NCBI GenBank assembly: GCA_016874975.1 | Contig: VGSQ01000001.1 | Span: forward strand, 3,474 to 67,473 | Direction of reading: 5' to 3' | DNA length: 64,000 bases | Source: Deltaproteobacteria bacterium | GTDB lineage: Bacteria; Desulfobacterota; Desulfobaccia; Desulfobaccales; 0-14-0-80-60-11 | In this document: piece by piece, positions 44,045-64,000 of the stretch | Numbering within the stretch: the stretch's first letter is position 1 | Layout of the letters: each line of letters starts with the position of its first letter | Notes under the pieces: generated by a model | What the model was told of the DNA's origin: nothing | What the model saw: the letters and a program-made list of their open reading frames with translations, nothing else | Databases searched by the model: none | Translations under genes and position numbers: made by a program

Positions 44045-44378
44045 GCTTGGTAATTTAATAATCTAATAATATTAATATGTTATAAATCTATTCCGGGGTA
44101 GTCGGGAAGGATCGGGGAATTTCTTAAAAGACAATAAGACAATTTCTTTTCAGATGAGAATTCCTGGCCGATTCTTTTTTTCCAATAAGCCCTTTCCATT
44201 GTCCGATGACCTCAACCTGTTGCCTCCTCGTTGCCAAGCTCCAGGTTGGCCGGAGCCTCATCCCCATGCAGATGAGGGCGGCGGTCATAAAATCATTTTC
44301 CGGGGGGTGGCCCCGTTTCGGGCAAGAGCGTTGCCGCGCGCGGGCAAGCAGGGGGGAGTCAGGTGGCGGCGTTCCGGG

Positions 44379-45337
44379 TCATTCCCGGGAAGGCGCCTCT
44401 TTCATCTTTTCCAGGGCCCGGTTCAGATTGCTTTTGGCCTCTTCATAAAAGGTGGGACGGATTTCCAGGGCTTTCTGGAAGCACTTGGCCGCTTCCTCAT
44501 AGCGGCCTTCCTGGTAATAGTGGACGCCGACATTGTTGTACGCCTGCGCTTCGTCGCCCGCTTTGAGGAAGGCCTGGAAGGCCTCGTCATAGCGCTTCAG
44601 GCCCGCCAGAGCCATGCCCAGATAATGCCGGCTTTTGGGGTGCTGGGGGTCGATGGCCAGGCCCTTGTTGAGCCAGGAGACGGCCTTGTGGTAATCCTTG
44701 AGTTGAACGTAGGCTTCGCCCAGGGAGGCCATGGCGGCGTAATTTTTAGGGGCCAGGCGCACGCTTCCAGTTCGGCGATGGCCTCCCGGGGTTTCCCCGC
44801 CGCCAGGTAGGCGGTGCCGAGAAAATAGCGGGTCTGGGGGCGCCGGCTATCCTGCCCCAGGACCTGACGGAAGGTGTCGATGGCCTGGGGATACTGATTG
44901 GTCTGCAGGTGCACCAGCCCCAGGGCTTCGTAGGCCTCCAGCATGTCGGGCCGGGCCTGGATGACCCGTTGCAGTTCCAGGCGCGCCTGTTCGTAATGCC
45001 CGCCCAGCAGGTAAATCACCCCCACTTTGTAGCGGATGTCCACCCGCTCGGGCTGGAGTCGCAGCACCTGAAGATAGTTGACCAGGGAACTTTCGTAGTC
45101 GCGGCTTTGCAGGAGGAGATCACCCAGGGCTTCCCGCCGCTCCGGAGGCATCTCCTGGACGGGTCCGGTCTGTGGCTTGGGGTCTTGGGGAGTGTAAAGG
45201 TCCGACAGTCTGCCCGCCTCTCGGGGACTGAGGCCCCGGACCTTGGGCTCCGGCCTGATCCAGCCGCAGTGGCACAGGGAAAGAGTCAGGAGCGCCAGCC
45301 CCGCAATTGCAATCAGGATGCGCCCAGCCCGCCCCAT
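44379..45337 (-). pseudogene. tadD: TadD-like TPR lipoprotein, interrupted by a 1-nt frameshift near 44763-44766
   Basis: ORF 44597-45337 (lipobox 'LTLSLCHC', TPRs) turns to junk after '...KPREAIAELEA'. ORF 44379-44762 continues in another frame with '(V)RLAPKNYAAMASLGEAYVQLKDYHKAV...'. Joining the two restores a continuous TPR protein. Confidence 0.7.
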
Positions 45338-45633
45338 AGCGCTCCCTCCTTTTTAAGCTTTCGGCCACAAAAAAAATGCCGCCGTGCAGTTTCCCCCCTG
45401 TCGGGGGCGAGATCCCCTGGGGAAAGACATAAGCCTGAGATCTTGGAGACGCCAGGTAAAAATGCGCGTCGTTCTTCCCGATGCCCAATTATACCAGGGA
45501 AATTGAAAAAATCAGGTGGAAAGAGAAAGGGGTGGAGAGTTTGAAGGGAGGGAGGGGAAACGAGGTTCCCCCGGCCCTCCCCTCAGAAAGCGCCGTATCG
45601 TGATGTTCCGGTGAGCCTGAGGCTCAGGAACGG

Positions 45634-47814
45634 CTAGTCCGCCAGGGCGGCCAGGAGATGCCAGCGCGGCTTGAGGTCCTGGCCCAGGATGATCCTGATG
45701 TCCGTGTCGTCCGGGAGGTTGTCCCGCGCCCTTAACTCGGCGTGGGGGAAGAAGCGCTGGAGCAGCGCCTGGGCCACCTTGTCGGCGCCGGGACGGTGGG
45801 CGATCAACGTCTGTTGATGGCCGAAGTCGATGTGGTTGGCGATGGCCACCACATTGAAGCCCTCTTTGGACAGCAGGGTCCGGCTTTTCCGGGCCACCTC
45901 GGGGATGCCGTTGCCGTTGCGCAGTTCAATCCTGGTGGACAGGAGTTCTTCCGCAGTCAGGCGGATGTTCGGGATGAAAGCGGGGCGTTCCGGTTTGGGC
46001 GGGAGGGCCGCGGCCGCCACTGCCACCCGGGCCTTGTCAAAGGGCGCCCCAGCCTCAGCCGGAGCCGCAACGGCAGGCGGAGCCGCCGGACGGCGGGCGC
46101 CGGCCCACAGGGTCTCGGGTTTGCGGTGGCTGCGCCCCAGAATCACCTGGAGGTCCACCCCTTCCGCCAGGTCGCCGGTCATCTCCACCGCAGCCGGGAG
46201 ACCGAAGTTGTCGGCCAGCTTCCGGGCGGCGTCCTCGGCGGCCGGCCGGTAGAGAATCACGGTCCGGCGGAGATTGAATTTCCACCAGTTGCCCACCTGC
46301 ACCACCTGGTAGCCCTGTCCTTCCAGCCATGTTGCCGTCTTCCGGGCCAGGCGCCGGACGCCGTTGCCGTTCAGGATTTCGATGCGGGCTGCCATCCCGG
46401 AGGCTGGCGGGGGGGCGACGGTCGGCAGCGCCTTGGCCGCCGCGACCGGAGGCGGAGAGGCGGGCGCCTGAGCCGCCTTCACTGCGGCGGGACGGGAGGG
46501 GCCGCGGCTGACCTTCGCCAGGGTTATTGCCGCACCACCCCCCGCAAAGGTTGGCCTGGCCTTGGCCACCGGCCGAACTCCGGCTTCAGGCGGCCGGGCG
46601 GGTCCGGTCTGGGCCGTTGCGGTGGGGCGGGGCTTGGCCGGGGCCGGCGCACTCGCCTGGGGGGCCGACGGGGCCGGGCTAAAGACGACTCGTTCCATCT
46701 TCTCTACCAGGGCCGCAGAGGGTGGCGCCGGGATGGCGGGAGGCGCGGCCCTCGGGACGGCCGGCGGGGGAGCCGGAGCCTTGGCGACCAGCGCCACCGA
46801 AGCCTTGCCCGGTTCCCCGGCAGCAGAAGCCGCCACCCGAGGCTGAGCGGCAGGCGCAGCCGGAACCTTGGCTGGCAGCGGAGCCGCACCCTTGACTGTT
46901 TCGCGGGCCACCGGCGCCGCGGGTGCGGCAGGCGAGGCCGCGGGCCGGGCGATTATCGAAGCCGAAGCCTTGCCCAATTCCCAGGCATTAGGAGCCGGGG
47001 CCGGAGGCGGGGCCGCGCCCGCCCGAGACGGGGCCCCAAGGGCCGCCTGTTCCAGTAGGGGCGATCCCGACTTCACCGGGGTCTGGGCGGGCCCTGCCGG
47101 GGCCGAAGCGACGGGCGGGCTCGCGGCCGGGGGCTTGGCCGCAACCGGGGGCTGTTGGCCGGAGACCCGGCCCGGCCTGCCCTGCTCCTGAGCCAGGGCC
47201 GCCAGCACCTGGTTCAGCTTTTCCTGGGCCTTGACGCCCCCTTCCTTTTCCCCCCAGAGAGTGAGCGCCTCTTCCTGCCGGCCCTGCCGGGCCAGAAGCA
47301 GTCCCAGGTTGTTGCGGGCCGTCTCATTGCCGGGCTGGCGGGCCACGGTTTCCCGGAAGCACTGCTCCGCTTCCCGGTGCTTGCCCGCCAGATAATAGGA
47401 GTAACAGAGATTGTTGCTCAGGGGCTGGTTGTCGGGGTCAATCTGCAATCCGGCCCGGTAGAGCTCCTGGGCCCGGGCGAATTCCCCCAGTTCATCGTAG
47501 CAGCGGGCCAGGGCGTCCAGCACCTTGAGGTTGCCGGGGTCCCGCAGGTGCGCCATTTCCAGCTCAATGGCCGCCATCTCCGGACGGCCCATCAGCTGGA
47601 AATAATGGGCGTTTTTGAGCAAACGGCCCACGTCGCCGGAAACCGGTCGCACCATGGCGCCGAACTGGTGGCGCAGGCTCTGCTGGCTGTTGCAGCCACT
47701 GCCCCAAACAAAGAGCACTCCCGCCAGGATGACCAGACCCAGAAATGGAGAAATCCGGCGCCGGCGGTGCGGGCGCCGGATGGCGGCGCCACCCTTGCTT
47801 CTATGACCGTACAT
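45634..47814 (-). CDS. lipoprotein: TPR repeats + ~270-aa Ala/Pro-rich linker + two LytR_C domains
   Basis: 726 aa; 'VLFVWGSGC' lipobox and N-terminal TPRs. 'IEILNGNGVRRLARKTATWLEGQGYQVV' and 'IELRNGNGIPEVARKSRTLLSKEGFNVV' are LytR_C-type modules. Confidence 0.75.
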   Translation of the reverse strand: MYGHRSKGGAAIRRPHRRRRISPFLGLVILAGVLFVWGSGCNSQQSLRHQFGAMVRPVSGDVGRLLKNAHYFQLMGRPEMAAIELEMAHLRDPGNLKVLDALARCYDELGEFARAQELYRAGLQIDPDNQPLSNNLCYSYYLAGKHREAEQCFRETVARQPGNETARNNLGLLLARQGRQEEALTLWGEKEGGVKAQEKLNQVLAALAQEQGRPGRVSGQQPPVAAKPPAASPPVASAPAGPAQTPVKSGSPLLEQAALGAPSRAGAAPPPAPAPNAWELGKASASIIARPAASPAAPAAPVARETVKGAAPLPAKVPAAPAAQPRVAASAAGEPGKASVALVAKAPAPPPAVPRAAPPAIPAPPSAALVEKMERVVFSPAPSAPQASAPAPAKPRPTATAQTGPARPPEAGVRPVAKARPTFAGGGAAITLAKVSRGPSRPAAVKAAQAPASPPPVAAAKALPTVAPPPASGMAARIEILNGNGVRRLARKTATWLEGQGYQVVQVGNWWKFNLRRTVILYRPAAEDAARKLADNFGLPAAVEMTGDLAEGVDLQVILGRSHRKPETLWAGARRPAAPPAVAAPAEAGAPFDKARVAVAAAALPPKPERPAFIPNIRLTAEELLSTRIELRNGNGIPEVARKSRTLLSKEGFNVVAIANHIDFGHQQTLIAHRPGADKVAQALLQRFFPHAELRARDNLPDDTDIRIILGQDLKPRWHLLAALAD

Positions 47815-47840
47815 GGCTCCCCCCCTACGTCATAGAATGC

Positions 47841-48770
47841 TCACTTCGTTAACAGCGTTTTATATATCTGAATGGCGGCCGGCCCCAAGATCACGATAAA
47901 CAGCGATGGAAAGATACAGACCAGGGTGGGAAAAATGATCTTGATGGGCAGCTTGGCGGCCAGTTCCTCAGCCCGTTGGGCCCGCTGCACCCGGACGAAG
48001 TCGGCGTGGGTGCGCAAGGCCTGGGAAATGCTGGCGCCCATGCGTTCCGATTGGACCATCAGGGCCACCAGTGATTTGATGCTGTTCACTCCGGTGCGCT
48101 CCGCCAGATTATTGAGGGCCCGTTCCCGGGAGACGCCGGTGCGCAACTCAGCGTTGGTGATCTGCAACTCCTCGTGCAGTTCCTGGGACACCGGCTTGAT
48201 CTCTTCGGACACCTTGTTCATGGTGGCCTGCAGGGACAATCCGGCTTCGATGGAGATGATCATCAGGTCCAAGACATCGGGCAGGGCGCGGTCCATGCGG
48301 TCCTGACGCCGGCGGGTGGAAAATTTGAGGAGATATGTGGGCAGATAATAGCCGATGCCGGCCAGCAGCAGGGCGACGCTGAGATTGGCGGAGACCTTGA
48401 TTCCCTTGAAAAAGCCGTAAAAAAGATAAGGCAGCGGCAAAATAATCGCGGTCAGGGCCCGGAGGCCGAAAAAGACCACCGGGGCGCCGGGATGCCGGAA
48501 GCCGCCGTGGATCAGTTGAGTGCGGAGGGGGGCCAGGCTCACCGGGTCCCTGATGGTCCACTTGCCCAGGTAGGAGAGGTATTGGAGCGCCTGATTCTTC
48601 AGGGTGCGCGTCGGGTCCTCCCGCTTGAGCACGGAGACCTTGGGGGCCTGGGGTTTTCGGAAGCGGTCCTGAATGGCCTGGCGGTGGCCGAAAAACACCA
48701 TGACCCCGTAAACGAGAAGACAGATGGCCAGGAACGAGGCCAACAGGACCAGAGATTCAGACCCCACCAT
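47841..48770 (-). CDS. tadC: TadC
   Basis: 309 aa; 'LPDVLDLMIISIEAGLSLQATM'. Paralog of 18610-19545. Confidence 0.88.
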   Translation of the reverse strand: MVGSESLVLLASFLAICLLVYGVMVFFGHRQAIQDRFRKPQAPKVSVLKREDPTRTLKNQALQYLSYLGKWTIRDPVSLAPLRTQLIHGGFRHPGAPVVFFGLRALTAIILPLPYLFYGFFKGIKVSANLSVALLLAGIGYYLPTYLLKFSTRRRQDRMDRALPDVLDLMIISIEAGLSLQATMNKVSEEIKPVSQELHEELQITNAELRTGVSRERALNNLAERTGVNSIKSLVALMVQSERMGASISQALRTHADFVRVQRAQRAEELAAKLPIKIIFPTLVCIFPSLFIVILGPAAIQIYKTLLTK

Positions 48771-48779
48771 TTCTCCTCC

Positions 48780-49769
48780 TCAGACCTTGATTTTGATCAG
48801 ACGCTGCATCCACAGGTAGCCGGTAAGGATGCCCAGACCTCCTGCGGCCAGCATCTTGGCGCCGACAGGTTCCTCAAAAAAAGGCTGCACATATTTGGGA
48901 TTGAGGTAGAGCAGGACGACAAAGAGGCCCACCGGCAAGAGGCTGAGGATGAGGGCCGAGAACCGCCCCTCCGCGGTGATGGCTTTGATCTTGCCCTTGA
49001 GCTTGAGCCGCTCCCGGATCAGGTAGCCGATGTTTTCCATGACTTCGGCCAGGTTGCCGCCGGTTTCCGCCTGCAGGGTGACGGCGGTGATGAAATACTG
49101 CAGGTCCTGGCTGTCCACCCGCTCTCCCATGCGTTGGAGGGCGTTTTGCAGGCTCAACCCCAGGCGCTGCTCCTCATAGACCACCTTCATTTCCGTGCCC
49201 AGGGGGGCGGCGATCTCCCGGCTCCCCAGGTCGATGGCCGAAGGCAGGGTGTGGCCGGCCCGCAGTGACCGGGCCAACAGCTCCATGCCCTCAGGCATCT
49301 GCGTTTCGAACTTTTTGGTCTTCTGGTTTCTTTTCAGGTTGAGGTAGAAGACCGGAGCCCATCCCAGGGCCGCGGCCAGGACCAACCCCACCAGCAGCTT
49401 GTCCCGCAGCAGCCCCGCCATGAGCCCCACGGAGGCCAGGATGCCGCAGACGCTCAGGAAGGTGGCCGGGGTCCAGAAGATATCCGCTTGCAGCAGCTTC
49501 CGCCGCAGGTTTTCGATCTTACCCCACCCCACCAGGCGTTCCACAAAGAGCAGCACCACACTCTTGTCGGCCTGGACCACAGCCTTGAGGATCTGCACCC
49601 GCTGCACCCGGGCCCGATGGCCCAGGAGACGCCGGTTCAGGTCCCGCTTCCAGAGGAGGGGCCGCAACACCAGGTGGAAGAGCCCCGAGGCCAAAAGAAA
49701 AATGCCCACAAAGACGGCGACCAATGCCAGGGCGTATTCGCTGTTGGTGTTGAGTTTGAGAAAACCCAT
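48780..49769 (-). CDS. tadB: TadB
   Basis: Start moved to ATG 49769 (MGFLKLNTNSEYALALV...), 13 nt after the cpaF stop and colinear with the TadB1 N-terminus. 'MPEGMELLARSLRAGHTLPSAID'. Confidence 0.86.
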   Translation of the reverse strand: MGFLKLNTNSEYALALVAVFVGIFLLASGLFHLVLRPLLWKRDLNRRLLGHRARVQRVQILKAVVQADKSVVLLFVERLVGWGKIENLRRKLLQADIFWTPATFLSVCGILASVGLMAGLLRDKLLVGLVLAAALGWAPVFYLNLKRNQKTKKFETQMPEGMELLARSLRAGHTLPSAIDLGSREIAAPLGTEMKVVYEEQRLGLSLQNALQRMGERVDSQDLQYFITAVTLQAETGGNLAEVMENIGYLIRERLKLKGKIKAITAEGRFSALILSLLPVGLFVVLLYLNPKYVQPFFEEPVGAKMLAAGGLGILTGYLWMQRLIKIKV

Positions 49770-49782
49770 GCCTGTGCCTCGC

Positions 49783-51189
49783 TCAATTGTGGGCGAATTT
49801 GAAACCATAGGCCCGGCTGGGGCCTTCGAAAACCTCGTCCCGGATGGGCACCCCGAAGAGCTTGCAGCGGTCGGCGAAGCGGGGCCTCACCCCCGTCGCC
49901 ATGAACCGGCCCAGCACCTTTTCCTGTTGGTCCACTTCGTGGCGCTCGAACACAAAGATGTCCTGGAGGCTGATGACCCCGCTCTCCATCCCGGTTATTT
50001 CGGAGAAGGAAACCAAGCGGCGGACGCCGTCGGTGTGACGGGCCAACTGGATAATGACGTCCAGAGAGGAGCTGATCATCTGGCGCATGGCCTTTTCGCT
50101 GACGCTGATGCCGGAGAGCTGGATCATGGTCTCCAGGCGCAACAAAGCCTCCCGGGCATTGTTGGCGTGCACGGTGGTCATGGAGCCTTCATGCCCGGTA
50201 TTCATGGCCTGGAACATGTCGATAACTTCGGCCCCCCGCACCTCGCCCACAATGATACGGTCCGGGCGCATGCGCAGGGTGTTGCGCACCAACTCCCGCT
50301 GGGAGACTTCACCTTTGCCTTCGATGTTGGCCGGCCGGGTCTCCAGGCGGCAGACATGCTCCTGCTGGAGCTGCAGCTCGGCGGAGTCCTCAATGGTGAC
50401 GATGCGCTCATTGTTGGGAATGAAACCGGAGAGGATGTTCAGCAGGGTGGTCTTGCCCGCGCCGGTGCCGCCGGAGATGAGCACGTTGAGCTTGGCCACG
50501 GCGATGGCTTGCAGCACTTCGCCGATCTCCGGCGTCAGGGAACCCTTCTGGATGAGGTCCTCCAGACTGGGCCGCTGCACCGAAAAGCGCCGGATGGACA
50601 GCATGGGGCCGTCCAGGGCCAGGGGCGGGATGATGGCGTTGACCCGGGAGCCGTCCGGCAGCCGGGCGTCCACCATGGGGTTGGACTCGTCGATGCGGCG
50701 CCCCACGTTGGCCACGATCTTGCCGATAATTTTGAGGAGGTGATTGTTGTCCTGAAAGCGGATGTGGATGCGCTCCAGCTTGCCGCCGCGCTCCAAGTAG
50801 ACCTGGTCCCAGCGGTTGACCAGGATGTCGGAGATGCTGTGGTCCTTGAGAAGCGGCTCCAGGGGGCCCAGGCCCAGGATTTCGAATTCCAGTTCCTGAG
50901 CCAGCCGCGCCTTTTCCTGGGTGTTGAGGGGTTCCGTCTCCTCTTCCATGAGCTGGGTCAGGGCCTCCCGGATTTCCCGGGCCACCAGGCTCTCTTCCAG
51001 AGACTCCAGCTTTCCCAGGTCCAACTGTTCCAGGAGTTGCTGATGCACCCGGGTCTTGACCGCGTTGAGCCGGGCCTCCCGGCCTGCGTCCACCCGCACC
51101 GGGGCTAGGACGGCGTAAGAGGGCTCCGGTTCTTTTTCTTTGGGTTTGGCATCTGGCGCCATCTTCTTGTTGTAGCGGAGGAAGGCCAT
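49783..51189 (-). CDS. cpaF: CpaF/TadA secretion ATPase
   Basis: 468 aa; '[12 protein letters not shown]', '[11 protein letters not shown]', '[12 protein letters not shown]'. Confidence 0.97.
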
Positions 51190-52395
51190 TTATTTCCCCT
51201 TCCCCAGCCCCAGGAATTGACGCCAGGAGCGGCCGGCCGCCTTGCCTTCCTCCACCTCACCCAGGATTTCCCGGCTTAACAGCCGGCTCATCTCCTGGAT
51301 GCCGGTCCACAGCTTGGAGCGGGGCGCCACCCGTCCCAGGGGCACACCCCGGTTGATGGCTTCAATGAGAGGCTCATAGTCGCTGGGAAGCAGATGAAAC
51401 ACCTTGGCCCTGACCAGCTTTTCCAGGTTGCTCACCCGCACGCTGTTGCCTTTGTAGTGGCGGTTCACCACCAGGTGAATCTTGTTGGCGATCTCCGGCC
51501 ACTCCCGCAGGGTGGGCCACAGGTTGCCCAGGTTGCGCAGGTCCGGCACGGTGAGCTCGGTAAGCAGCAGCGTGGCGTCGGCCTCCCGCAGGACGTGGAG
51601 AAAGAGTTCATCCAGCCAGTGGCTCAGGTCCACCACAATCCAGGGGTAGAGGCCGCGCAGCAAGGAAAAAATCTTGTCCAGCGCGGTCAGGTCCAGGCTG
51701 TCCTGAAGGTGAAAGTCGGTGATGCCGTGGAGCACGGCCAGATTGTCGTCCCCCTTCTGCACGATCTTGCGCATGAAGTCCCGGTCCAGTTCGGACAGGT
51801 TCTTCACCAGATCGTGGATGGAATAGGGGGACTCCCGGTCCAAAAAGTTGCAGATGTCGGGAAAAGGGCGGCCCAGGTCCATCAGCACCACGGTCTCCCC
51901 GTGGAGTTCGGCCAGGGCCGCGCCCAGGTTGAGGGCCAGGCTGGTGACCCCGGCGCCTCCCTTGTGGGCCGTCACCACCACCAATTTGCCCCGGGTGACC
52001 AACACCGGCTGCAAACGGCGGCGGGTGGTGCGCACCCGTTCCAGGGCGGCTTCCAGCTCCTCCCGGGCCAGGGGCAGGGGCAGGAATTCCCGCACCCCCG
52101 CCTGCATGGCCTTGATGATGAAGTCGGGCTCCCGGGTCCCGGAGCACACCAACACCGCGGTCTGGGGAAGTTTCTGGGTCAGCTCCGTAAGCCAGGGAGG
52201 CAGAATCTGCTCCCCATCCAGGTAGACCAGGACGGAATCCGGCGCTGAGACCGGTTCGCCGGCCAGCAATTGCTCGGGATGGGCGGCTTCGGTCACCACC
52301 TCCACCTGGGGCAGGTCTTTGAGAAAGGCCGGCAGCAGCGGCTGCTCCTGGCCTGTCCCGTAAAGCACCGAAACCTTAAGCGACTCGGTCGTCAT
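51190..52395 (-). CDS. cpaE: CpaE/TadZ-like ATPase
   Basis: 401 aa; receiver-like N-domain and 'VVVTAHKGGAGVTSLALNLGAA'. Confidence 0.85.
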   Translation of the reverse strand: MTTESLKVSVLYGTGQEQPLLPAFLKDLPQVEVVTEAAHPEQLLAGEPVSAPDSVLVYLDGEQILPPWLTELTQKLPQTAVLVCSGTREPDFIIKAMQAGVREFLPLPLAREELEAALERVRTTRRRLQPVLVTRGKLVVVTAHKGGAGVTSLALNLGAALAELHGETVVLMDLGRPFPDICNFLDRESPYSIHDLVKNLSELDRDFMRKIVQKGDDNLAVLHGITDFHLQDSLDLTALDKIFSLLRGLYPWIVVDLSHWLDELFLHVLREADATLLLTELTVPDLRNLGNLWPTLREWPEIANKIHLVVNRHYKGNSVRVSNLEKLVRAKVFHLLPSDYEPLIEAINRGVPLGRVAPRSKLWTGIQEMSRLLSREILGEVEEGKAAGRSWRQFLGLGKGK

Positions 52396-52437
52396 GCGTC
52401 CAGATACCCCCTTCCCTCGTCTCTGCCGACCGACCGG

Positions 52438-52734
52438 TTATTGGTCGGTGGTGAGTTTGAGGGTGGTGCCTCTCCTCTCCTGGGGCGAAAAACTCTTGTC
52501 GTAAGCATCCATCGTATTGGTGGCCGCTCTGGGAGGCTGGCCCGTGCTGACCTCCACCTGCAAGGCGGCCCGGGGGTTGACGATCTGGCGGGCCTTGTTG
52601 TTAGTCACCGAAAACCCATAGTCATTCTCCAGGGCCGAGGGAGGATTGGCGCAGCCCATTACCAGGCTCAGAATCAATCCCGCCGCCATCAGACCGGAGA
52701 TGGCCGCCCTGCTCCTGCGCATAATCCGTTTCAT
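52438..52734 (-). CDS. small lipoprotein (position of RcpB/CpaD-type accessory protein)
   Basis: 98 aa; 'GLILSLVMGC' lipobox. No recognisable domain. Confidence 0.55.
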   Translation of the reverse strand: MKRIMRRSRAAISGLMAAGLILSLVMGCANPPSALENDYGFSVTNNKARQIVNPRAALQVEVSTGQPPRAATNTMDAYDKSFSPQERRGTTLKLTTDQ

Positions 52735-52749: not shown

Positions 52750-54231
52750 TCATTCCACCGGCCGGTGTCCGAACGCCGGCGGTAGTTGGACTTCAGGCCG
52801 TGGTCTGGCCGATCCGGGCTGCCCTCTCCCCTGGTCCAGCCCCAACAGATAAAACTCCACGTTGTCGGGCTCGACATACTTGTCGGTGGGGAGGCGGACC
52901 GCGGAGGCGGCAACGGGTTTCACCAGGTAGGGCGTCACCAGCACCACCAGTTCGGTTTCCGATTTCTGGAATTGGCTGGAACGGAACAACGTCCCCAGCA
53001 CGGGAAGGTTCCCCAGCACCGGAAATTTGTTGATAACGGTGCGGTGCTGGTCGCTGAGCAGGCCGGCGATGGCGAAAGTCTGGCCGTCCTGCATCTCCAC
53101 GTGGGTGGACAAGCGGCGCACCGACAGGCCCGGCACCACGAAGCCCTGGGTGACCAGGGTCTGGCCCTGGGTGAAGTCCAGTTGTGACACTTCCGGGGCC
53201 ACCCGCAGGGCGATCTTGCCGCCGTCCAGGACGGTGGGCGTCACCACCAGGCCTACGCCGAACTTTTTGTATTCAATGGTGACGGTCTGAAACTGCTGCG
53301 GCACCGGGATGGGGAACTCGCCGCCGGCCAGGAAAGAGGCCTCCTGGCCGCTGGTGGTCACCAGGTTGGGCTCCGCCAGGATGCGCCCCAGGCCGTTCTG
53401 CTTGAGGATGTCGAAAAACATGGTCCACAGCCAGGTCCCCGTCCTGAAGCCGGCCAGGGCGTTGATGTTGGGACCGATGCTCTGGGTCAGGGTGGTGCCG
53501 GTGAAGGACCGCACGAATTCGGTGACGCTGGTCAGGCTGGCCAACTGGCTGACGCCGAAGCTCTGACCGGTGCGGTCGATGGCGATGAAGTTGATGCCGA
53601 TGCGGTTCAACACGCTGCGGTTGATCTCCGCCAGCCGCACCTCCACCATCACCTGCTGCACCCCCCCGATGTTGAGCAGATTGATGACCTTATCCTTTTT
53701 ATTGCCCACGAAAGGCAGCGCCAGAGCCACCGCGGTCTGCTGGGCGATGGGCCCCGACACCTCGCCGCTCAGCACCACCGAGTCGTCCGCGGCCTGGACC
53801 GCGATCTTCTCCTTGGGCAGCACCTGGGCCAGCTTCTCCTTCAGCATGGTGACGTCGGCTTCCACCGTCACCCGGGCCGAGGTGAAGCGGGTCTTGCCCC
53901 ACAGGCTCAGATTGGTGACGCCCGGGGCGATGCCGTTGATGTAGATTTCCCGTTCTGACGTAAGAATGATGTCGGCCACCTCGGGGTTGGCCACCGAGAC
54001 CCGGGTCAGGGCGAAGGGGGTGCGCAGCACCTTGGACTGCCCCACCCGGAGGCTGAGGGTTTGTTGGATCTCCTGGTCCCGGATTCGGCCCAGGGGACCG
54101 GCCGCCCAGGTCGGCGTCACCAGGGCCGCCAACAGCAGGGCCAGCCCCAGGCCCGCCAGCCGGCGACGCCAGGCCGAGGGTATGGAAGGTAGGTCCCTCC
54201 CTTGTACCATTTTTCTCCTTATCACCATCAT
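52750..54231 (-). CDS. cpaC: CpaC/RcpA secretin
   Basis: 'FPVLGNLPVLGTLFRSSQFQKSETELVVLVTPYLV' secretin C-domain signature; N-terminal signal peptide and BON-like region. ATG 54231 has the best GGAGG spacing (the track uses TTG 54237). Confidence 0.93.
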   Translation of the reverse strand: MMVIRRKMVQGRDLPSIPSAWRRRLAGLGLALLLAALVTPTWAAGPLGRIRDQEIQQTLSLRVGQSKVLRTPFALTRVSVANPEVADIILTSEREIYINGIAPGVTNLSLWGKTRFTSARVTVEADVTMLKEKLAQVLPKEKIAVQAADDSVVLSGEVSGPIAQQTAVALALPFVGNKKDKVINLLNIGGVQQVMVEVRLAEINRSVLNRIGINFIAIDRTGQSFGVSQLASLTSVTEFVRSFTGTTLTQSIGPNINALAGFRTGTWLWTMFFDILKQNGLGRILAEPNLVTTSGQEASFLAGGEFPIPVPQQFQTVTIEYKKFGVGLVVTPTVLDGGKIALRVAPEVSQLDFTQGQTLVTQGFVVPGLSVRRLSTHVEMQDGQTFAIAGLLSDQHRTVINKFPVLGNLPVLGTLFRSSQFQKSETELVVLVTPYLVKPVAASAVRLPTDKYVEPDNVEFYLLGLDQGRGQPGSARPRPEVQLPPAFGHRPVE

Positions 54232-54441
54232 ATCCAATTCCTCCCCAGTTCCCCTTTAACACCCTTCTGGGGAAGATGTCAATGAAATTCTTTTATCTAC
54301 GATTAAAGAAACTTTCATAATTTTTTCTTGGCACAACAATAGAGCCCTGTACAGACATGGGTGCTTTAGAAAGATGATCGGGGCGCCTCTTGAAAATTCC
54401 TTGTCATTGTTAACTCGTGTTCATCCGGAAAGTCGTTTTGT

Positions 54442-54555
54442 TCCCTCCCCCTTGATGGGGGAGGGTTAGGGTGGGGGTGAAATAAGTTAGCAATACAGAC
54501 CAGTTGCCCTATTGATCCCCCTCCCCCCAACCCCCTCCCACCAAGGGAGGGGGAG
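54442..54555. repeat. G-run/C-run hairpin element, copy C (uninterrupted)
   Basis: tccctcccccttgatgggggagggttagggtgggggtg-N37-ccccctccccccaaccccctcccaccaagggaggggg. Lies between cpaB and cpaC of locus 2. Confidence 0.85.
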
Positions 54556-54625
54556 TTTCCGGATGAGGACTAACTCAACGTGGCGATGTGCAAAACCGCC
54601 GGTCTGTTCTCCAGTAATTCCTTTG

Positions 54626-55447
54626 CTAAATCTCCGCTTCCTGGCGCTTGAGGCCCTTGATCAGTTCCACGGCGCGGCGCTCCTTGGCAGTGGCCGCCGG
54701 TTTGGCGGGCGCCTCCTCCTTGACCGCGGCGGCCGCGGCCCGACCCCGAAAAAGATGCGAAGTCATAACACCGGCCGTGACATAAAGCTCCGGAGACAAC
54801 TGGTTGCGCAACGCCAAGCGGATCTTCCCCTGGAAGCTGGCCAGGTTCAGAACCTCGGCCTGCTCGGGGGTGACCTCCAACGTCACCGTGGTCACCACCT
54901 GGGGTTTCTTTTCCCCCAACTGGTCGGTGGTCTGTCCCTTGCTCAGCACCCGCAGGCTTTGCAGAATGATCTTGGAGAAATGCTCCCCGCCGCCGCTGGG
55001 CGAGGGCAGCTCCGCCAGCACGTCCACCAGGTCGCCCGGATGAAGGAACCCGGCCACTCCGGAGACCTCGTCGATGCGCACCGTCAGGGCCAGCAGGCCT
55101 GGCTTGAGGAGGCCCCCCAGACCCGCGGCGGTGCCCTCCGGGGCCAGCTTCGTGCTGAGCAGCGGCTCACCCTTGCTCACGTGGGTCTGCACCACCCGCC
55201 CCTCCAACCGGTCCAGGCTGCGGATGGCGTTGGCGGGTATCAGCTCCCGGGGCCAGGTGGCCAGGGAGATCAGGCGGCCGGTGACCGCCGTGCCCGGTTC
55301 CATCTCCGCGGTGGCCACCACTACCTGATCCGAGGGCTTGACCACGGAAACGGTCTTGGTGGTGATGTAACGGTGGATCAGGGCGGTGGCCACCAGGCCC
55401 ACCACCCCCGCCAACACCAGATAGGACGCGCCTTTGGGCAGTTTCAT
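54626..55447 (-). CDS. cpaB: CpaB/RcpC
   Basis: 273 aa; paralog of 13993-14817. Confidence 0.88.
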   Translation of the reverse strand: MKLPKGASYLVLAGVVGLVATALIHRYITTKTVSVVKPSDQVVVATAEMEPGTAVTGRLISLATWPRELIPANAIRSLDRLEGRVVQTHVSKGEPLLSTKLAPEGTAAGLGGLLKPGLLALTVRIDEVSGVAGFLHPGDLVDVLAELPSPSGGGEHFSKIILQSLRVLSKGQTTDQLGEKKPQVVTTVTLEVTPEQAEVLNLASFQGKIRLALRNQLSPELYVTAGVMTSHLFRGRAAAAAVKEEAPAKPAATAKERRAVELIKGLKRQEAEI

Positions 55448-55450
55448 GGC

Positions 55451-55909
55451 TCACTCGCTCTTCATGGTGGTGCTTGACGAAAATGTCATGTTCTTCAAGG
55501 TGGGGATGAAATTCCCCAGAAGGTCCCAGGGATTGGTGCAATCGACCTTCACCGTGAGATCGTCCCCCGGATTGGCCCGGGTGTAGCCCAGCCCCGAGGG
55601 CGTGGGCACCGTCCAGGAGCCGCCGGGCAACAGACCGGTGATATAATTGTTCACCACGTCCTGGATGCGGTTGGGGGCAGTCAGATTGGACGGCGGAATC
55701 CGGTTGCCGCTGGTGTCGTAGCGGTAGATGACGCCGTAGCGGGCCCCTTCCCGGGTGGCGTTGGTGATGACGTATTTGGCGTACCAGGCCAGGCCGAACT
55801 GCAAAATCCCCAAAATAATGAGCATCAGGACGGTGAGGAGGATGGCGAATTCCACCATCGCCACCCCCTCGGACCGCTTAAGGAACCGGCAGCATGATCG
55901 CCTTGCCAT
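55451..55909 (-). CDS. tadE: TadE-like pseudopilin
   Basis: 152 aa; 'GVAMVEFAILLTVLMLIILGILQFG'. Confidence 0.85.
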   Translation of the reverse strand: MARRSCCRFLKRSEGVAMVEFAILLTVLMLIILGILQFGLAWYAKYVITNATREGARYGVIYRYDTSGNRIPPSNLTAPNRIQDVVNNYITGLLPGGSWTVPTPSGLGYTRANPGDDLTVKVDCTNPWDLLGNFIPTLKNMTFSSSTTMKSE

Positions 55910-55912
55910 GGG

Positions 55913-56467
55913 TTACATCTCCTTCAGAAAGACGCTGACCACCCCCAGCATGAGAACCACCCCGTAAGGGATGGCCATCATGGTGATGCGGGCCTGATTG
56001 GGACTCACCGCGGCCTCCAGGGGACGGCGGCACACCCGGTTGAAGAGAGCGGCGCCGCAGCAGCGCATCCGCCAGACCAGCTCTCCCCGGGACCAGATCG
56101 CATAAAGGGCCAACAGGCCGGCCATGCACCCCATATAGGAGAAGAGCAGAAAGACGCGCCCCGGACCCAGCCAGGCGCCCAGAGAGGCCAAAGCCTTCAG
56201 ATAGCCCTCGTCGATGCCGCCCAACCGGTAAGGAATGAGCAGCATCCCCACGGCCACCGTCAACCCCAGGATGCCGTCCACCAGGCCGGGCCAGCCCAGA
56301 AACCAGCACTGGTGGGCCAGGCCGGCCAGGGTGGCGCCCAGGATCAGGATAAGGGGAACGGCCCGACGCCGTTCATCACCCCAGGCGATCCACAGCACCA
56401 ACAACAGAGGCCACAGCAGGTGTCCCTGCACACTGACCCAGGAAAAAGCAGCTTGTACGCCGGACAT
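55913..56467 (-). CDS. cpaA: CpaA/TadV-like prepilin peptidase homolog lacking the second catalytic Asp motif
   Basis: 184 aa polytopic; 'WGDERRRAVPLIL' keeps the first Asp. 'GGIDEGYLKALASLG' replaces 'GGMGAGDVKALAGLG' of the locus 1 paralog. Confidence 0.75.
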   Translation of the reverse strand: MSGVQAAFSWVSVQGHLLWPLLLVLWIAWGDERRRAVPLILILGATLAGLAHQCWFLGWPGLVDGILGLTVAVGMLLIPYRLGGIDEGYLKALASLGAWLGPGRVFLLFSYMGCMAGLLALYAIWSRGELVWRMRCCGAALFNRVCRRPLEAAVSPNQARITMMAIPYGVVLMLGVVSVFLKEM

Positions 56468-56559
56468 GAGACCTTCCTTTCGCGCCTGAGAGGGGCGCCT
56501 CTCCGGAAACGCCGCCTCCGCTGCATGTCGCCGAGAATGAACGCAGCACGGAGCGTCCG

Positions 56560-56667
56560 TTACACCAGACGCCCGAGAGCCGCCACCGCCATCACACTGA
56601 ACACCAGAGACAACACGCCGGTGGTGACGGCCCAGATCATGCCTTTCACTTCTTCACAGGCATTCAT
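56560..56667 (-). CDS. hypothetical 35-aa hydrophobic peptide
   Basis: Own translation MNACEEVKGMIWAVTTGVLSLVFSVMAVAALGRLV* with RBS ggaggga 6 nt upstream. Below the track cutoff; no counterpart in locus 1. Confidence 0.35.
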   Translation of the reverse strand: MNACEEVKGMIWAVTTGVLSLVFSVMAVAALGRLV

Positions 56668-56720
56668 GTCGCTCCCTCCAGAAACATGAGTCGCATGGAA
56701 AAGTAACAAGCTATTTTCCG

Positions 56721-56885
56721 TCATTTGGCAAGGTTGCCTGCCACTTCATTATACTTTGACATCAGACTCGACCCTAAGGCGCCAACCGCCAAAATGCAAG
56801 CAAGGGCGATGAAGGTTACCAGTAAGCCGTATTCCACCATGCTGGCTCCTTCACAGTCTTCCCAAAATTCTTGCATCCGCTTCAT
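56721..56885 (-). CDS. flp: Flp family pilin
   Basis: ATG 56885 after ggaggg. 'MKRMQEFWEDCEG/ASMVEYGLLVTFIALACILAV'. 54 aa. Confidence 0.88.
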   Translation of the reverse strand: MKRMQEFWEDCEGASMVEYGLLVTFIALACILAVGALGSSLMSKYNEVAGNLAK

Positions 56886-56925
56886 GCCTTGGCCCTCCAC
56901 CACTCTATTTCGTCATTTGGAAATG

Positions 56926-56956
56926 CCGGGTCCGGCGGGGGGGCCGCTGGACCCGG
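56926..56956 (-). other. stem-loop between the two flp genes of locus 2
   Basis: CCGGGTCC-N15-GGACCCGG, an 8-bp GC stem with no clear U-tract. Confidence 0.35.
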
Positions 56957-56982
56957 ATATCTTTGGTTAAGATTTCTTGTTA

Positions 56983-57147
56983 TTATTTAGCCTTACCCAG
57001 CTCGGCAGAGGTGTTTGTGAACGTGGTACTCAAGTTGGTGCCGACCGCGGTAACGGCAACGATACAGACCACAGCGATGAGGGCCACCAGCAGACCGTAT
57101 TCCACCATGCTGGCGCCGGATTCATCCTTCAAAAACCTTTTCAGCAT
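56983..57147 (-). CDS. flp: Flp family pilin
   Basis: Own translation (below track cutoff): MLKRFLKDESG/ASMVEYGLLVALIAVVCIVAVTAVGTNLSTTFTNTSAELGKAK*, with RBS aaggaggg. Confidence 0.88.
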   Translation of the reverse strand: MLKRFLKDESGASMVEYGLLVALIAVVCIVAVTAVGTNLSTTFTNTSAELGKAK

Positions 57148-57295
57148 TTTAATTCCCTCCTTTGATGTTTTGGCTCACCTGCACGGTGGCCGATGGTCCG
57201 AAACTTCCTGTTCCTGGCCGATTTGTTGGTCCCCTGCTTCCCCTGGCGGTCCTCCCTGTAAAAAAATTTTAGTAAGCTTTTGTCGCTCAGGAGTA

Positions 57296-57311
57296 ATCAA
57301 GAAATATGCCA
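57296..57311 (-). promoter_or_regulatory. sigma-54-like -24/-12 element with variant -12 (TTGA) upstream of flp, locus 2
   Basis: Minus strand reads TGGCATATTTCTTGAT, about 150 nt upstream of the flp ATG. GG is at the correct offset but the -12 is GA rather than GC. Confidence 0.35.
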
Positions 57312-57707
57312 ACTCCGGCAAGTTCCTCCAAAAATTGCCAATCAGGTCATAATCATATTAAAAATCAATAAGTTATGCAGATAGACGGCTGGCCCCCGGA
57401 GGCGCTTTCGAGACTCGCAAGCCGGAGCCCCGAATTTACTCACGATTTCCGCCGTCAGAGGGAAAAAAGAGCGGGAAATTTCCCCGGAGACGACCGCGGC
57501 GGCTGAGGCAGGCGGTCCTCGCAAGGGGGTTTTTTTTGAGCTGAGCCGCGCTAACTCAGGATTTCAGGTAGGAAATTATCAGGGAATTAAACGATATTGT
57601 TTATAAAGATATGAGTATGAACAATATTATTTACAAATATTTCATACAATTTTGCAGATATCTCGTAAAAAGAGAGTTGTTCTCAAGGAAAAAGAATGCG
57701 CTATCGC

Positions 57708-59144
57708 TTATTGAGAAAAAAGTCTGCCCAAACGGGTGATTTTATGCTTTTTCAAGAGGGCGTAAAGTCGGGGTTGAGACAAGGCGGAGACCCGGCAGGC
57801 ATCCTTGATGTTGAAGTCCACCAGGGTCATGAGTTCCTGAAGGTATTGGCGCTCGGCCTGGGTGACGGCCTGCTCCCGGAAATCCCGCAGTTTGGGCAGG
57901 ACCGGGGTCAGGGTCGGGGCCGCAGTGGGGTGGCGCTCACCCAGGTACTTTACCGGCTCTTCCCGCAGGACCGCGGTGCGGGCCAATTTGATGCGGATGT
58001 GGCTGGGCAGGTGCGTGGGAAAGAGGGTGGGTTCGTGGCGGGCCGCGGCCAGGGCCCGGTCCAGGGTGTTGATGAGCTCCCGGACGTTGCCGGGCCAGTC
58101 GTAAACCAGCAGACAGTCGAAGAATTCGGGCGCGAAGCTCTTGGGGGTGATGCCGTAAGAGTCGCACAGGCGGCCCAGGTGGTGCAGGGCCAGGTCTTTG
58201 ATATCCTCGGGACGGGAGCGCAACGGCGGCAGGTTGATGGTGATGGCGCGCAGCCGGAACAGCAGGTCGGTGCGGAAGGAGCCCTGCCCCACGGCCTGCT
58301 CCAGGTCCCGGTTGGTGGCGGCCACCAGCCGGAAGTTGCTCTCCACTTCATGGCGGTTGCCCAGGGGCCGGAAGCGCCGTTCCTGGAGCACCCGGAGAAA
58401 GGCCTTCTGCATGATGAGGGGCAGCTCCCCCACTTCGTCCAGGAACAGGGCGCCGCCGTCGGCCTGTTTGATGAGGCCCACCTGGGGCCGGTCGGCGCCG
58501 GTGAAGGCCCCCCGTTCGTAACCGAACAGGGCGCTTTCCACCAGGGACTCGGGCAGCGCGGCGCAGTCCACCACCACGAAGGGTTTGGCGGCCCGGGCGC
58601 TGTTGGCGTGGATGGCCCGGGCAAACAGTTCCTTGCCGGTGCCCGTTTCGCCGACGATGAGCACGTTGGCGTCGCTTTCCGCGGCCTGGGCCACCAGGTC
58701 GTAGCACACCCGCATCTGGGCGCTCTGGCCCACGATGCCTTCCAACTTGAGCGCCTGTTGGGGTTTGCGGTCTTTCTTTTCTTCCCGGTACTGCATGGCC
58801 CGGCTCAGGGCCAGGGCCATCTGCTTGATGGAGGATTGCTTTTCGATATAGTCCCAGGCGCCGTTGACGATGGCCAACTCCGCGCCGTCGGGGTCGCCGG
58901 CGCCGGTGATGATGATGACCTCCGGCTGGCCGGCGGCCTCCCGGATCCGGGGCAGGGCTTCCAGACCGCTGCCGTCGGGCATGCGCACGTCCAGGAAGAC
59001 CACGTCACAGGGGCTGGCGGCGGCGGCCTCCAATCCCTGGGCCAGGGTCAGGGCGAAGCGCACCTCGTGGCCCAGATCCTTGACCATATCGGACAACATT
59101 TCACAGAACATTTCGTCGTCGTCAATGATCAACACGGTGCCCAT
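57708..59144 (-). CDS. sigma-54-dependent response regulator (NtrC family)
   Basis: 478 aa; receiver 'LIIDDDEMF...DVVFLDVRMPDGSG', AAA+ 'VLIVGETGTGKELFARAIH', 'GAFTGA' loop, C-terminal Fis-type HTH 'ACRVSALSQPRLYALLKKHKI'. Confidence 0.96.
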   Translation of the reverse strand: MGTVLIIDDDEMFCEMLSDMVKDLGHEVRFALTLAQGLEAAAASPCDVVFLDVRMPDGSGLEALPRIREAAGQPEVIIITGAGDPDGAELAIVNGAWDYIEKQSSIKQMALALSRAMQYREEKKDRKPQQALKLEGIVGQSAQMRVCYDLVAQAAESDANVLIVGETGTGKELFARAIHANSARAAKPFVVVDCAALPESLVESALFGYERGAFTGADRPQVGLIKQADGGALFLDEVGELPLIMQKAFLRVLQERRFRPLGNRHEVESNFRLVAATNRDLEQAVGQGSFRTDLLFRLRAITINLPPLRSRPEDIKDLALHHLGRLCDSYGITPKSFAPEFFDCLLVYDWPGNVRELINTLDRALAAARHEPTLFPTHLPSHIRIKLARTAVLREEPVKYLGERHPTAAPTLTPVLPKLRDFREQAVTQAERQYLQELMTLVDFNIKDACRVSALSQPRLYALLKKHKITRLGRLFSQ

Positions 59145-59230
59145 GAGCTTGTCTCTTCCTTGATCTTGATGGTGAACCGGGGTTCTCCCGGCCGGATGTC
59201 ACTCCCTGTGAGACCGGTCGCCACCGCCCT

Positions 59231-62965
<3,735 letters not shown>

Positions 62966-63029
62966 CGGGTGGTGTTTCCCTCAGCTTAGGGCATTCGTTA
63001 TCCCCATTCACTTTACCATAACTTCAATT

Positions 63030-63045
63030 AGCAAGACAAATGCCA
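63030..63045 (-). promoter_or_regulatory. sigma-54 -24/-12 promoter upstream of the kinase/regulator operon
   Basis: Minus strand reads TGGCATTTGTCTTGCT (consensus TGGCACG-N4-TTGCW), about 65 nt upstream of the kinase ATG at 62965, in an AT-rich divergent region. Confidence 0.6.
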
Positions 63046-63275
63046 AAAAACAAGAAAAAAATTTTTTCTCGGAAAAGTAAGTTTTTTCTTGCTCAATTTT
63101 CTTTCCCGAATAAGAAAAAATCTTGCGGAAGGATGTCTGCCGGGTCATGCCAGGCCGAAGCCTGTCCGCCGGCATCAGGGAAACTCTTACATAGTAAGGA
63201 TCTCCGCAAACCTCTTTGCTCCCTGCCCCGGGGAATCCCCTTGACTCAGCCTGGCTGAGACGATAGCCTGAAGGC

Positions 63276-64000
63276 ATGCCGGACTACCTGGTGGCCATCC
63301 CCACGTATTGGACCCACCCGGCAGGCCGGGGCGAGGAGGCGGTAATCTATGGGCACCCCACTCCTCTGGACGGCCGGGGCACCTTGAGGCGCACCCTCCT
63401 GAGCCTGGCCCCGTTGATGGCTCCGGGAACCAGCGTGGCGGTGGTGGTTGCCGCGGCCCATCCGTCTCTGGCAGAGGCCGTGGAGGCGCGGGTGCGGCAG
63501 GTTTTGGCCGACCCCCCCCTCCCCTACCCCGTCCTTCTGTGCGGCCATTCGCACCTCCGCTCCCTGGCGGCCTTCCTGGAGGCGCACGGCCGCGGCGGGC
63601 ACGTCCCCCTGCTCTCGCTGGAGGGCTACGGGGCGGTGCGGAACGTCACCCTGATAACGGCCACCCTCTGCCAGGCGGCAGCCCTGGTCTCCCTGGACGA
63701 TGACGAAGTGGTCGATGACCCAGATTTTTTCGTCAAAATCGCCGCAGACCTGGAGGCTTTGGTCGCCTCACACCCCGTCTTCGGCTTGGCCGGCATCTAC
63801 CAGGACGGGGCCGGGGAGGTCCTCCTGCCCGAACCCCAGGCCCCCTGTGCGCGGTTTTGGCCCAAATTCCGCTGGATGAACGAGGCCTTGCGGCGCCTGA
63901 TCCTCACGGGCCCCAACCTCCAGCCCACCCCGCTGGCCTTTGGGGGGAACATGATTCTGCCTGCGGCGCTGTTCCGACAGATTCCCTTCGACCCGGCCCT
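63276..64000 (+). CDS. hypothetical protein, possibly GT-A-fold glycosyltransferase-like, partial (3' end beyond window)
   Basis: Own translation from ATG 63276: MPDYLVAIPTYWTHPAGRGEEAVIYGHPTPLDGRGTLRRTLLSLAP...LVSLDDDEVVDDPDFF...LAFGGNMILPAALF. Open to the window end; not in the track because it is truncated. Confidence 0.5.
   Translation, partial: MPDYLVAIPTYWTHPAGRGEEAVIYGHPTPLDGRGTLRRTLLSLAPLMAPGTSVAVVVAAAHPSLAEAVEARVRQVLADPPLPYPVLLCGHSHLRSLAAFLEAHGRGGHVPLLSLEGYGAVRNVTLITATLCQAAALVSLDDDEVVDDPDFFVKIAADLEALVASHPVFGLAGIYQDGAGEVLLPEPQAPCARFWPKFRWMNEALRRLILTGPNLQPTPLAFGGNMILPAALFRQIPFDPA

Follow-up and report, generated by a model that had tools for sequence, protein, structure and literature searches.

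Can a Tad pilus locus that carries a full-length prepilin peptidase gene still lack an active prepilin peptidase of its own? The question is raised by cpaA2, a gene in a 64,000-nt stretch of DNA (hereafter the window; positions 3,474 to 67,473 of contig VGSQ01000001.1, assembly GCA_016874975.1) from a deltaproteobacterium affiliated with the Desulfobaccales. The window contains two paralogous Tad loci of the type IVc pilus class, locus 1 on the plus strand (12224–22148) and locus 2 on the minus strand, each with one homologue of the A24 prepilin peptidases, cpaA1 and cpaA2, which lie 43 kb apart. Judged from its sequence, the catalytic inactivity of CpaA2 is well supported, and we favor, with a probability of roughly 0.55, the explanation that it is a catalytically dead paralog under relaxed constraint and that the prepilins of locus 2 would be matured in trans, most plausibly by CpaA1. 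The two genes and the catalytic motif regions of CpaA2 are:

55913–56467, minus strand: cpaA2, degenerate A24 prepilin-peptidase homologue of 184 residues (NCBI MBM4283672.1)
56348–56383, minus strand: motif 1 region of cpaA2, codons 29–40 (WGDERRRAVPLI), with the first catalytic Asp, D31, kept
56195–56221, minus strand: motif 2 region of cpaA2, codons 83–91 (GGIDEGYLK), with Y89 in place of the GxGD Asp
12951–13520, plus strand: cpaA1, canonical short A24 prepilin peptidase of 189 residues (D33, D91)

The translated open reading frame (ORF) of cpaA2 carries LWIAWGDERRRAVPLILIL at motif 1 and IPYRLGGIDEGYLKALASLGAWLG at motif 2, and the corresponding sequences of CpaA1 are WGDIRTHRIPNY and PYALGGMGAGDVKALAGLGAWLG, as quoted in a preliminary description of this DNA. 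That description had also proposed that the Asp of GxGD is a Tyr in CpaA2, that an Asp-Glu pair lies three and two residues upstream of it, and that the first Asp (WGD) is kept while IPN is lost, and our alignments bear out each of these points. BLASTP aligns the two proteins at 40% identity (E 1e-26) without gaps through both motifs and pairs D31 of CpaA2 with D33 of CpaA1 and Y89 with D91; D86 and E87 occupy positions -3 and -2 relative to Y89. Because the Pfam Peptidase_A24 profile (positions 5–104) matches both proteins over the same 100 residues, CpaA1 and CpaA2 are in the same register. D31 of WGD lies at the invariant Asp column of the A24 family, and hmmalign to the family hidden Markov model (HMM) places Y89 (codon TAT, 56201–56203, minus strand) at the second Asp column; no Asp of CpaA2 is placed at this catalytic position. 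In the family profile, both Asp columns align to the D and GIGGGD motifs of FlaK (3S0X). Motif 2 has three further changes (G86D, A87E, and V90L), leaving four of the five GAGDV residues altered. In motif 1, the invariant R-I-P-N-Y has become A-V-P-L-I, so three of the four IPNY residues differ, including the invariant N and Y, and N39L and Y40I both require two or more nucleotide changes.

All 119 closest homologues from a database of 5.8 billion proteins have WGD-x5-IPNY and G-x-G-A/G-G-D-V-K, and CpaA2 alone in that set reads WGDERRRAVPLI and GIDEGYLK. The second catalytic column holds an Asp in 147 of 149 diverse relatives (representatives of 50% clusters), and the remaining two look truncated or frameshifted; the CpaA genes that adjoin CpaF homologues in 80 reference genomes are all canonical (33 of 33). 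When 1.84 billion cluster representatives were searched exhaustively with HMMER, CpaA2 made up a cluster of its own, and neither these representatives nor the 5.8 billion proteins contain a dead motif of the CpaA2 type from another species. Peptide-pattern scans of genome and metagenome contig collections, from which the source contigs are absent, recovered no relative. Of the 66 columns with a conservation of at least 95%, CpaA2 deviates at 19, nine of them inside the two catalytic motifs, versus 2–6 of 63–64 columns in five control sequences; it keeps the other 47, including most helix Gly, Pro, and Trp residues. Both Asp residues are required in this family, since either D149A or D213A alone abolishes the function of PilD (bioRxiv 10.1101/2025.07.10.664072).

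The divergence is also visible to standard annotation. CpaA1 scores 65.5 bits against Pfam, has canonical motifs, and is annotated by NCBI as a prepilin peptidase. CpaA2 reaches 21.8 bits (E 2.7e-4) against PF01478 (Peptidase_A24), under the gathering cut-off of 26.5, has no match in NCBIfam, and is annotated as a hypothetical protein. Its homology to A24 is clear from 169 bits against a clade-specific family HMM and from the E value to CpaA1. CpaA2 thus counts as a degenerate homologue of the A24 peptidases in which a defining feature of the family is lacking.

The AlphaFold2 (AF2) model of CpaA2 (predicted local distance difference test score, pLDDT, 88.3; predicted template modeling score, pTM, 0.77) has the same helix pattern and topology as that of CpaA1 (pLDDT 91.2), with the fold of CpaA2 driven largely by canonical sequences in its alignment. 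The top Foldseek match of the CpaA2 model is the preflagellin peptidase FlaK (3S0X; probability 0.99, TM 0.51), the only solved GxGD A24 structure recovered, and CpaA2 is accordingly predicted to adopt a polytopic helical membrane fold like that of FlaK. FlaK is only 15% identical and differs in having an extra soluble domain and both Asp residues; a single-sequence search of the PDB with CpaA1 gave marginal matches only, and the FlaK alignment needed a profile search. In the models, Y89 of CpaA2 and D91 of CpaA1 both occupy the third position of the equivalent helix, while D86 is the last loop residue before the Y89 helix and E87 is its cap.

The preliminary description had allowed for two states of CpaA2, an inactive scaffold or an enzyme with a shifted acid. 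For the latter, in which CpaA2 would be an active aspartic protease with D86 or E87 as its displaced second acid, one can cite the retention of D31, the location of two acids exactly where the Asp was lost, and their modeled positions at the start of the Y89 helix. We consider it improbable. D86 follows an Ile where GxGD has a Gly; positions -3 (Gly) and -2 (Ala or Gly) are invariant in some 270 relatives, none of which has an acid there; and the loss of either Asp suffices to inactivate PilD. IPNY has been destroyed as well, through codons that needed multiple nucleotide changes, and this decay of the first motif argues that the whole active site was released and not re-tuned; the sub-threshold Pfam score and the accelerated evolution described below also speak against an active enzyme. 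Of the two states, inactivity is well supported by the loss of the Asp, GAGDV, and IPNY and by the accelerated evolution, and a shifted acid finds no support, as D86 lacks a Gly at -1 and has no precedent.

As the window comes from a metagenome-assembled genome (MAG), we tested whether the degenerate motifs are a sequencing or assembly artefact or the product of a mis-called frame, and we reject this explanation, which retains next to no probability. The identical 184-residue protein occurs on nine contigs from at least four samples and two assembly sources, which are 99.97–100% identical to the window, free of indels, and without a single nucleotide polymorphism (SNP) in cpaA2, and this excludes sequencing error. 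Moreover, CpaA2 has 19 changes at conserved columns rather than one, and its frame aligns to homologues from end to end.

A contig of NCBI assembly GCA_964522695.1 (L087) shows when the catalytic residues were lost. It matches locus 2 gene for gene, from the histidine kinase gene through the tetratricopeptide repeat (TPR) genes, and its A24 gene at the cpaA2 position is canonical (WGDVRTRSIPNY, GMGAGDVK). The syntenic ortholog is canonical in both L087 and L088, so the dead state is not conserved across several species; with a canonical gene in the syntenic L087, the loss is a derived one, limited to a single species-level lineage. The protein identities between the window and L087 are 70% for the kinase, 82% for the regulator, 70% for Flp2a, 67% for CpaB, 86% for CpaC, 69% for TadZ, 85% for CpaF, and 69% each for TadB and TadC, and only 53% (54% on recomputation) for CpaA. 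For calibration we used 21 pairs of loci with canonical peptidases, in which the identity of CpaA can be calculated from the mean identity of TadZ, CpaF, TadB, and TadC as 1.04 times that mean minus 0.3 (residual standard deviation 3.2). This predicts 75% for CpaA2 and its L087 counterpart, compared with the observed 54% (z = -6.6), and all comparisons that involve CpaA2 fall 4 to 6.6 standard deviations below the calibration. Tajima relative-rate tests count 26–35 unique changes in CpaA2 versus 8–12 in the canonical ortholog P0002 (p 1e-4 to 0.014), giving CpaA2 an evolutionary rate about two to three times that of the ortholog.

If CpaA2 does not cleave prepilins, the substrates of locus 2 depend on another enzyme. 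The genes of locus 2 are given here in their order of transcription, with cpaA2 between the small ORF and tadE2:

59231–62965, minus strand: GAF/PAS hybrid histidine kinase gene, upstream of locus 2
57708–59144, minus strand: sigma-54 response regulator gene, upstream of locus 2
56983–57147, minus strand: flp2a, prepilin (Pfam Flp_Fap, 62.4 bits; cleavage site DESG/ASMVEY)
56721–56903, minus strand: flp2b, prepilin (Pfam Flp_Fap, 40.6 bits; cleavage site DCEG/ASMVEY; the likely start is the ATG that gives 54 residues)
56560–56667, minus strand: small ORF of 35 residues between flp2b and cpaA2
55451–55909, minus strand: tadE2, pseudopilin (Pfam TadE; cleavage site RSEG/VAMVEF)
54626–55447, minus strand: cpaB2, RcpC/CpaB (Pfam RcpC and SAF)
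52750–54237, minus strand: cpaC2, secretin (Pfam Secretin, 152 bits), the sole secretin gene in the window
52438–52734, minus strand: lipoprotein gene
51190–52395, minus strand: tadZ2
49783–51189, minus strand: cpaF2
48780–49808, minus strand: tadB2
47841–48770, minus strand: tadC2
45634–47814, minus strand: TPR/LytR_C gene
44597–45337, minus strand: TPR gene
42963–44033, minus strand: tadG-like gene

Every Tad gene is present in locus 2, with the peptidase degenerate; the part beyond cpaC2, from the lipoprotein gene to the tadG-like gene, spans 42963–52734 (minus strand), and the arrangement of kinase and regulator (57708–62965) is repeated in L087. The Shine-Dalgarno sequence of tadE2 lies inside the 3' end of cpaA2. 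The G/ASMVEY site that the preliminary description had assigned to locus 2 is found in both Flp2 prepilins, and that of TadE2 is G/VAMVEF. Together with the sites of locus 1 (G/VTAMEY in Flp1a, A/ATAMEY in Flp1b, and G/VAAVEL in TadE1), all prepilin and pseudopilin sites of the two loci belong to one G/xxxxE[YFL] class.

The peptidase most plausibly acting on these sites is encoded in locus 1, whose remaining genes are:

12224–12448, plus strand: flp1a
12496–12690, plus strand: flp1b
13527–13982, plus strand: tadE1
13993–14817, plus strand: cpaB1
14890–16161, plus strand: tadZ1
16168–17574, plus strand: cpaF1
17594–18589, plus strand: tadB1
18610–19545, plus strand: tadC1
19638–20894 and 21006–22148, plus strand: two tadG-like genes

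Locus 1 contains all Tad genes except those for a secretin, the lipoprotein, and a TPR protein. There is no secretin gene in the 72-bp gap between cpaB1 and tadZ1 (14818–14889), and tblastn finds no second secretin in the window, which thus holds two A24 homologues and one secretin, in keeping with the earlier premise that locus 1 lacks this component. The position of cpaC2 next to cpaB2 is the same in an independent contig (L083). Neither Tad locus of the window is complete alone, and the two are complete together. Their paralogs are 40% (CpaA), 40% (TadE), 42% (TadZ), 43% (TadB), 51% (TadC), 67% (CpaF), and 76% (CpaB) identical, and these identities indicate that the duplication is old.

After the split from the L087 lineage, CpaA2 lost its second Asp (D to Y89) and residues around both motifs, keeping the predicted A24 membrane fold and an ORF while evolving about two to three times faster. 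We propose that it no longer cleaves prepilins. Flp2a, Flp2b, and TadE2, with their canonical G/xxxxE[YF] sites, would then be cleaved in trans by another A24 peptidase of canonical type, for which CpaA1 is the most plausible candidate. The redundancy of two Tad loci may have allowed the peptidase to be lost, with cpaA2 persisting under relaxed constraint as a tolerated remnant whose role, if any, would be accessory and non-catalytic. The secretin of locus 1 was probably removed by the same process, leaving two complementary and partly degenerate machines.

The reciprocal dependency that follows, with locus 2 needing the peptidase of locus 1 and locus 1 the secretin of locus 2, is a plausible inference from 64 kb of one genome, and it would not hold if the rest of that genome encoded a PilD-type peptidase or an orphan secretin. 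Related Tad loci, the closest of which by CpaF come from Desulfobaccales, Desulfobacca, and 'delta proteobacterium' MAGs, show similar losses. On a 1.8-kb contig from a related organism (L089, 1–1804), a secretin gene whose product has an N-terminus 81% identical to CpaC2 comes after a tadE gene (product 58% identical to TadE1 and 34% to TadE2) and a cpaB gene (product 77% identical to CpaB1). The presence of a secretin behind a tadE1/cpaB1-like pair suggests that locus 1 has lost its own and that its arrangement is a derived, complementary loss. In the MAG L012, only a secretin remnant of 64 residues (8467–8658) is left between cpaB and tadZ; L006 lacks a secretin present in its close relatives L004 and L005; and the Tad loci of L008, L010, L011, and L013 contain neither cpaA nor cpaC. 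Tad loci without a peptidase or a secretin are thus common in this clade, and these cases suggest that loss of the two parts is recurrent, which makes dependence on genes elsewhere plausible but also ordinary.

Dependence of this kind has precedents in other bacteria. The flp-2 cluster of S. meliloti lacks a secretin, which is supplied at a third locus, the orphan 'Locus 3' (PMC10934763). In the Kil system of M. xanthus, which is encoded in two clusters, the major pilin is processed without KilA, presumably because PilD covers for it, and prepilin peptidases are reported to be promiscuous (PMC12075869). As in these split systems, a core part is absent, or the system's own peptidase does not process all substrates, and genes elsewhere complement the deficit. 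They differ in that the part is missing altogether or the enzyme is active with limited substrates, whereas locus 2 appears to have a full-length dead copy in place, and in that the two losses here are complementary between two paralogous loci. CpaA2 is likewise homologous to TadV of Aggregatibacter, CpaA of Caulobacter, and FppA of Pseudomonas aeruginosa, enzymes of about 180–190 residues without an N-terminal methyltransferase domain, and it shares their predicted helix topology, operon position between flp and tadE, and first Asp. It departs from them in its Tyr at the second Asp, its loss of GAGDV and IPNY, its sub-threshold Pfam score, and its accelerated evolution.

Several observations weigh against a simple loss of constraint on cpaA2. 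Two acids, D86 and E87, were gained right beside the lost Asp. A Shine-Dalgarno-like GGAAGG lies 4 nt upstream of the start codon, the GC content at third codon positions (GC3) is normal, and the ORF is intact in nine of ten contigs. The NG86 ratio of nonsynonymous to synonymous substitution (dN/dS) between cpaA2 and its L087 ortholog is about 0.32, with dS near saturation. The CpaA2-specific substitutions outside the motifs are conservative (mean BLOSUM62 -0.10 versus -0.74 +/- 0.37 for simulated random changes, p ~0.045), while those within the motifs look random in the same simulation. The conservative substitutions, the dN/dS ratio, and the intact ORF fit a selected non-catalytic function as well as they fit a tolerated remnant. 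In addition, a PilD-type peptidase may be encoded outside the window, CpaA1 being a donor that we infer, and the frameshifts of the tenth contig, described next, may be assembly errors.

This tenth contig (L001, JGI sample 3300020603) is 99.95% identical to the window over 9.6 kb (54417–64000), and its differences from the window over the aligned part consist of a 1-bp deletion, two SNPs, and a 2-bp deletion. The last of these falls within cpaA2:

56368–56369, minus strand: site of the 2-bp deletion in L001, a frameshift after codon 32 of cpaA2, absent from L083–L086

The 1-bp deletion, at 58686, causes a frameshift in the sigma-54 regulator gene. If the deletions are real, cpaA2 is dispensable in at least one strain. 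The differences specific to L001, as well as the junction at which it departs from the window, are absent from four other contigs. Beyond two hairpins that resemble repetitive extragenic palindromic (REP) elements (~54430–54560), L001 has PIN/PhdYeFM toxin-antitoxin genes in place of the secretin. A short way downstream of the sigma-54 regulator gene is the palindrome GTATGAA-N19-TTCATAC, whose loop contains the two SNPs (57636 and 57633); they create there a TGG...TTG similar to a -24/-12 element, some 490 nt upstream of flp2a.

L001 bears on two further explanations. One is that locus 2 as a whole is silent or in decay, cpaA2 being simply the gene in which this shows first, as might be suspected from a contig that is also frameshifted in the adjacent regulator gene and diverges after cpaB2. 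We regard this as improbable, as the other genes of locus 2 are all intact, score strongly against Pfam, and are 61–86% identical to their L087 orthologs at dN/dS ratios of 0.11–0.42, the secretin (86%) and the ATPase (85%) being best conserved, and the prepilin cleavage sites are canonical.

The other is that the dead CpaA2 has been kept by selection for a non-catalytic job, either as a prepilin-binding chaperone or gatekeeper or as part of the inner-membrane platform of locus 2. We hold this possible, at odds well short of even. Besides the dN/dS ratio, the conservative substitutions outside the motifs, and the ORF retained in most contigs, it can draw on the predicted fold (pLDDT 88), the 47 of 66 conserved columns retained, and a low chance of escaping a stop codon under neutrality (0.19 at 30 amino-acid changes and 0.04 at 60). 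The codons of N39L and Y40I have been hit more than once, which suggests that the active site has been free for some time and the rest of the protein constrained. Against this, the dead state is conserved in no second species, a frameshift allele exists, the signals of selection are weak with dS near saturation, the AF2 fold leans on canonical sequences, and we found no paper that pairs 'prepilin peptidase' with 'pseudoenzyme'. Weighing the L001 frameshift and the lack of a second species with the dead state against the signals of constraint, we favor a tolerated remnant over a selected pseudo-peptidase.

The rhomboid family offers a parallel for a retained fold: iRhoms and Derlins are intramembrane pseudoproteases that have kept a polytopic fold after losing catalytic residues. 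Both are conserved in many species and have demonstrated functions in client binding. CpaA2 resembles them in the predicted retention of an intramembrane protease fold; it belongs to an unrelated family and is known from one species-level lineage only. By extension, CpaA2 might be a non-cleaving receptor that binds the Flp2 and TadE2 prepilins and either retains them or passes them on to CpaA1, coupling two Tad machines that share one secretin. We offer this as speculation, and as rather doubtful. If true, CpaA2 would be the first pseudoprotease of the intramembrane GxGD type to take part in pilus assembly, and complementary degeneration would tie two paralogous nanomachines together.

Prepilin peptidases are regarded as obligate and uniformly conserved in every type IV filament system, and annotation pipelines take a Tad locus with cpaA as self-sufficient. 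The sequence of CpaA2 suggests that a full-length, in-frame copy can be catalytically dead, in which case standard annotation returns a hypothetical protein; our literature searches turned up no description of a prepilin peptidase that is naturally dead, whether termed inactive or pseudo. The two loci provide a clean, well-controlled case of complementary degeneration and suggest that, in Desulfobaccales-like bacteria, Tad systems present in several copies evolve as the copies lose complementary parts. Given the losses seen in cpaA2, in the locus 1 secretin, in the L012 remnant, and in the loci without peptidase or secretin, completeness should be judged per genome and not per locus. A non-catalytic role for the dead copy, if it has one, would raise the question of what prepilin peptidases do besides cleavage. 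The practical impact is limited, as the organism is uncultured and the dead form is from one lineage only.

The most similar paralogs of the two loci are cpaB1 and cpaB2 (14027–14643 versus 54797–55413), with 84% nucleotide identity over 617 bp and 76% amino-acid identity; between species the opposite holds, with CpaB far less conserved than CpaF. We considered gene conversion driven by docking to a shared secretin. This is ambiguous and is not used here as evidence, because a CpaB from another organism (P0278) is equally close to CpaB1 (77%, with 72–73% to CpaB2) and the proportion of synonymous differences (pS) is 0.30–0.61.

Matches to sigma-54-type -24/-12 elements occur upstream of flp1a (11919–11934, plus strand), upstream of a GT2 glycosyltransferase gene adjoining locus 1 (22381–22396, plus strand), upstream of the histidine kinase gene (63030–63045, minus strand), and, more weakly, upstream of flp2a (57296–57311, minus strand). 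All four are correctly oriented, and the number of such promoters in the window is not above chance; where they lie hints that both loci could be under the control of the regulator encoded next to locus 2.

Downstream of locus 1, the glycosyltransferase genes are accompanied by short repeats: a tandem duplication of 58 bp (98% identical) with the palindrome GGTGCGCGGTGCGCACC, an inverted pair of 68 bp (91%), and a direct pair of 57 bp (93%), at 22222–22362, 22600–22718, 25263–25330, and 31833–31889. They are probably REP-like elements or resemble miniature inverted-repeat transposable elements (MITEs). An Rfam scan of the window found nothing.

In locus 2, the 35-residue ORF encodes a predicted single-pass membrane peptide (MNACEEVKGMIWAVTTGVLSLVFSVMAVAALGRLV) that has no Pfam family. 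Gene calls include this ORF in several contigs, and a longer ORF of 59 residues at the equivalent place in L087 matches the peptide with its C-terminal 35 residues at 49% identity. Directly beyond the tadG-like gene at the end of the locus is a gene for a Prim-Pol domain protein of 540 residues (41324–42946, minus strand), which may hint at a mobile-element boundary. Finally, a 13-bp GC-rich hairpin without a clear T tract lies between flp2a and flp2b (56926–56956) and may act as an attenuator that sets the ratio of pilin to machinery.

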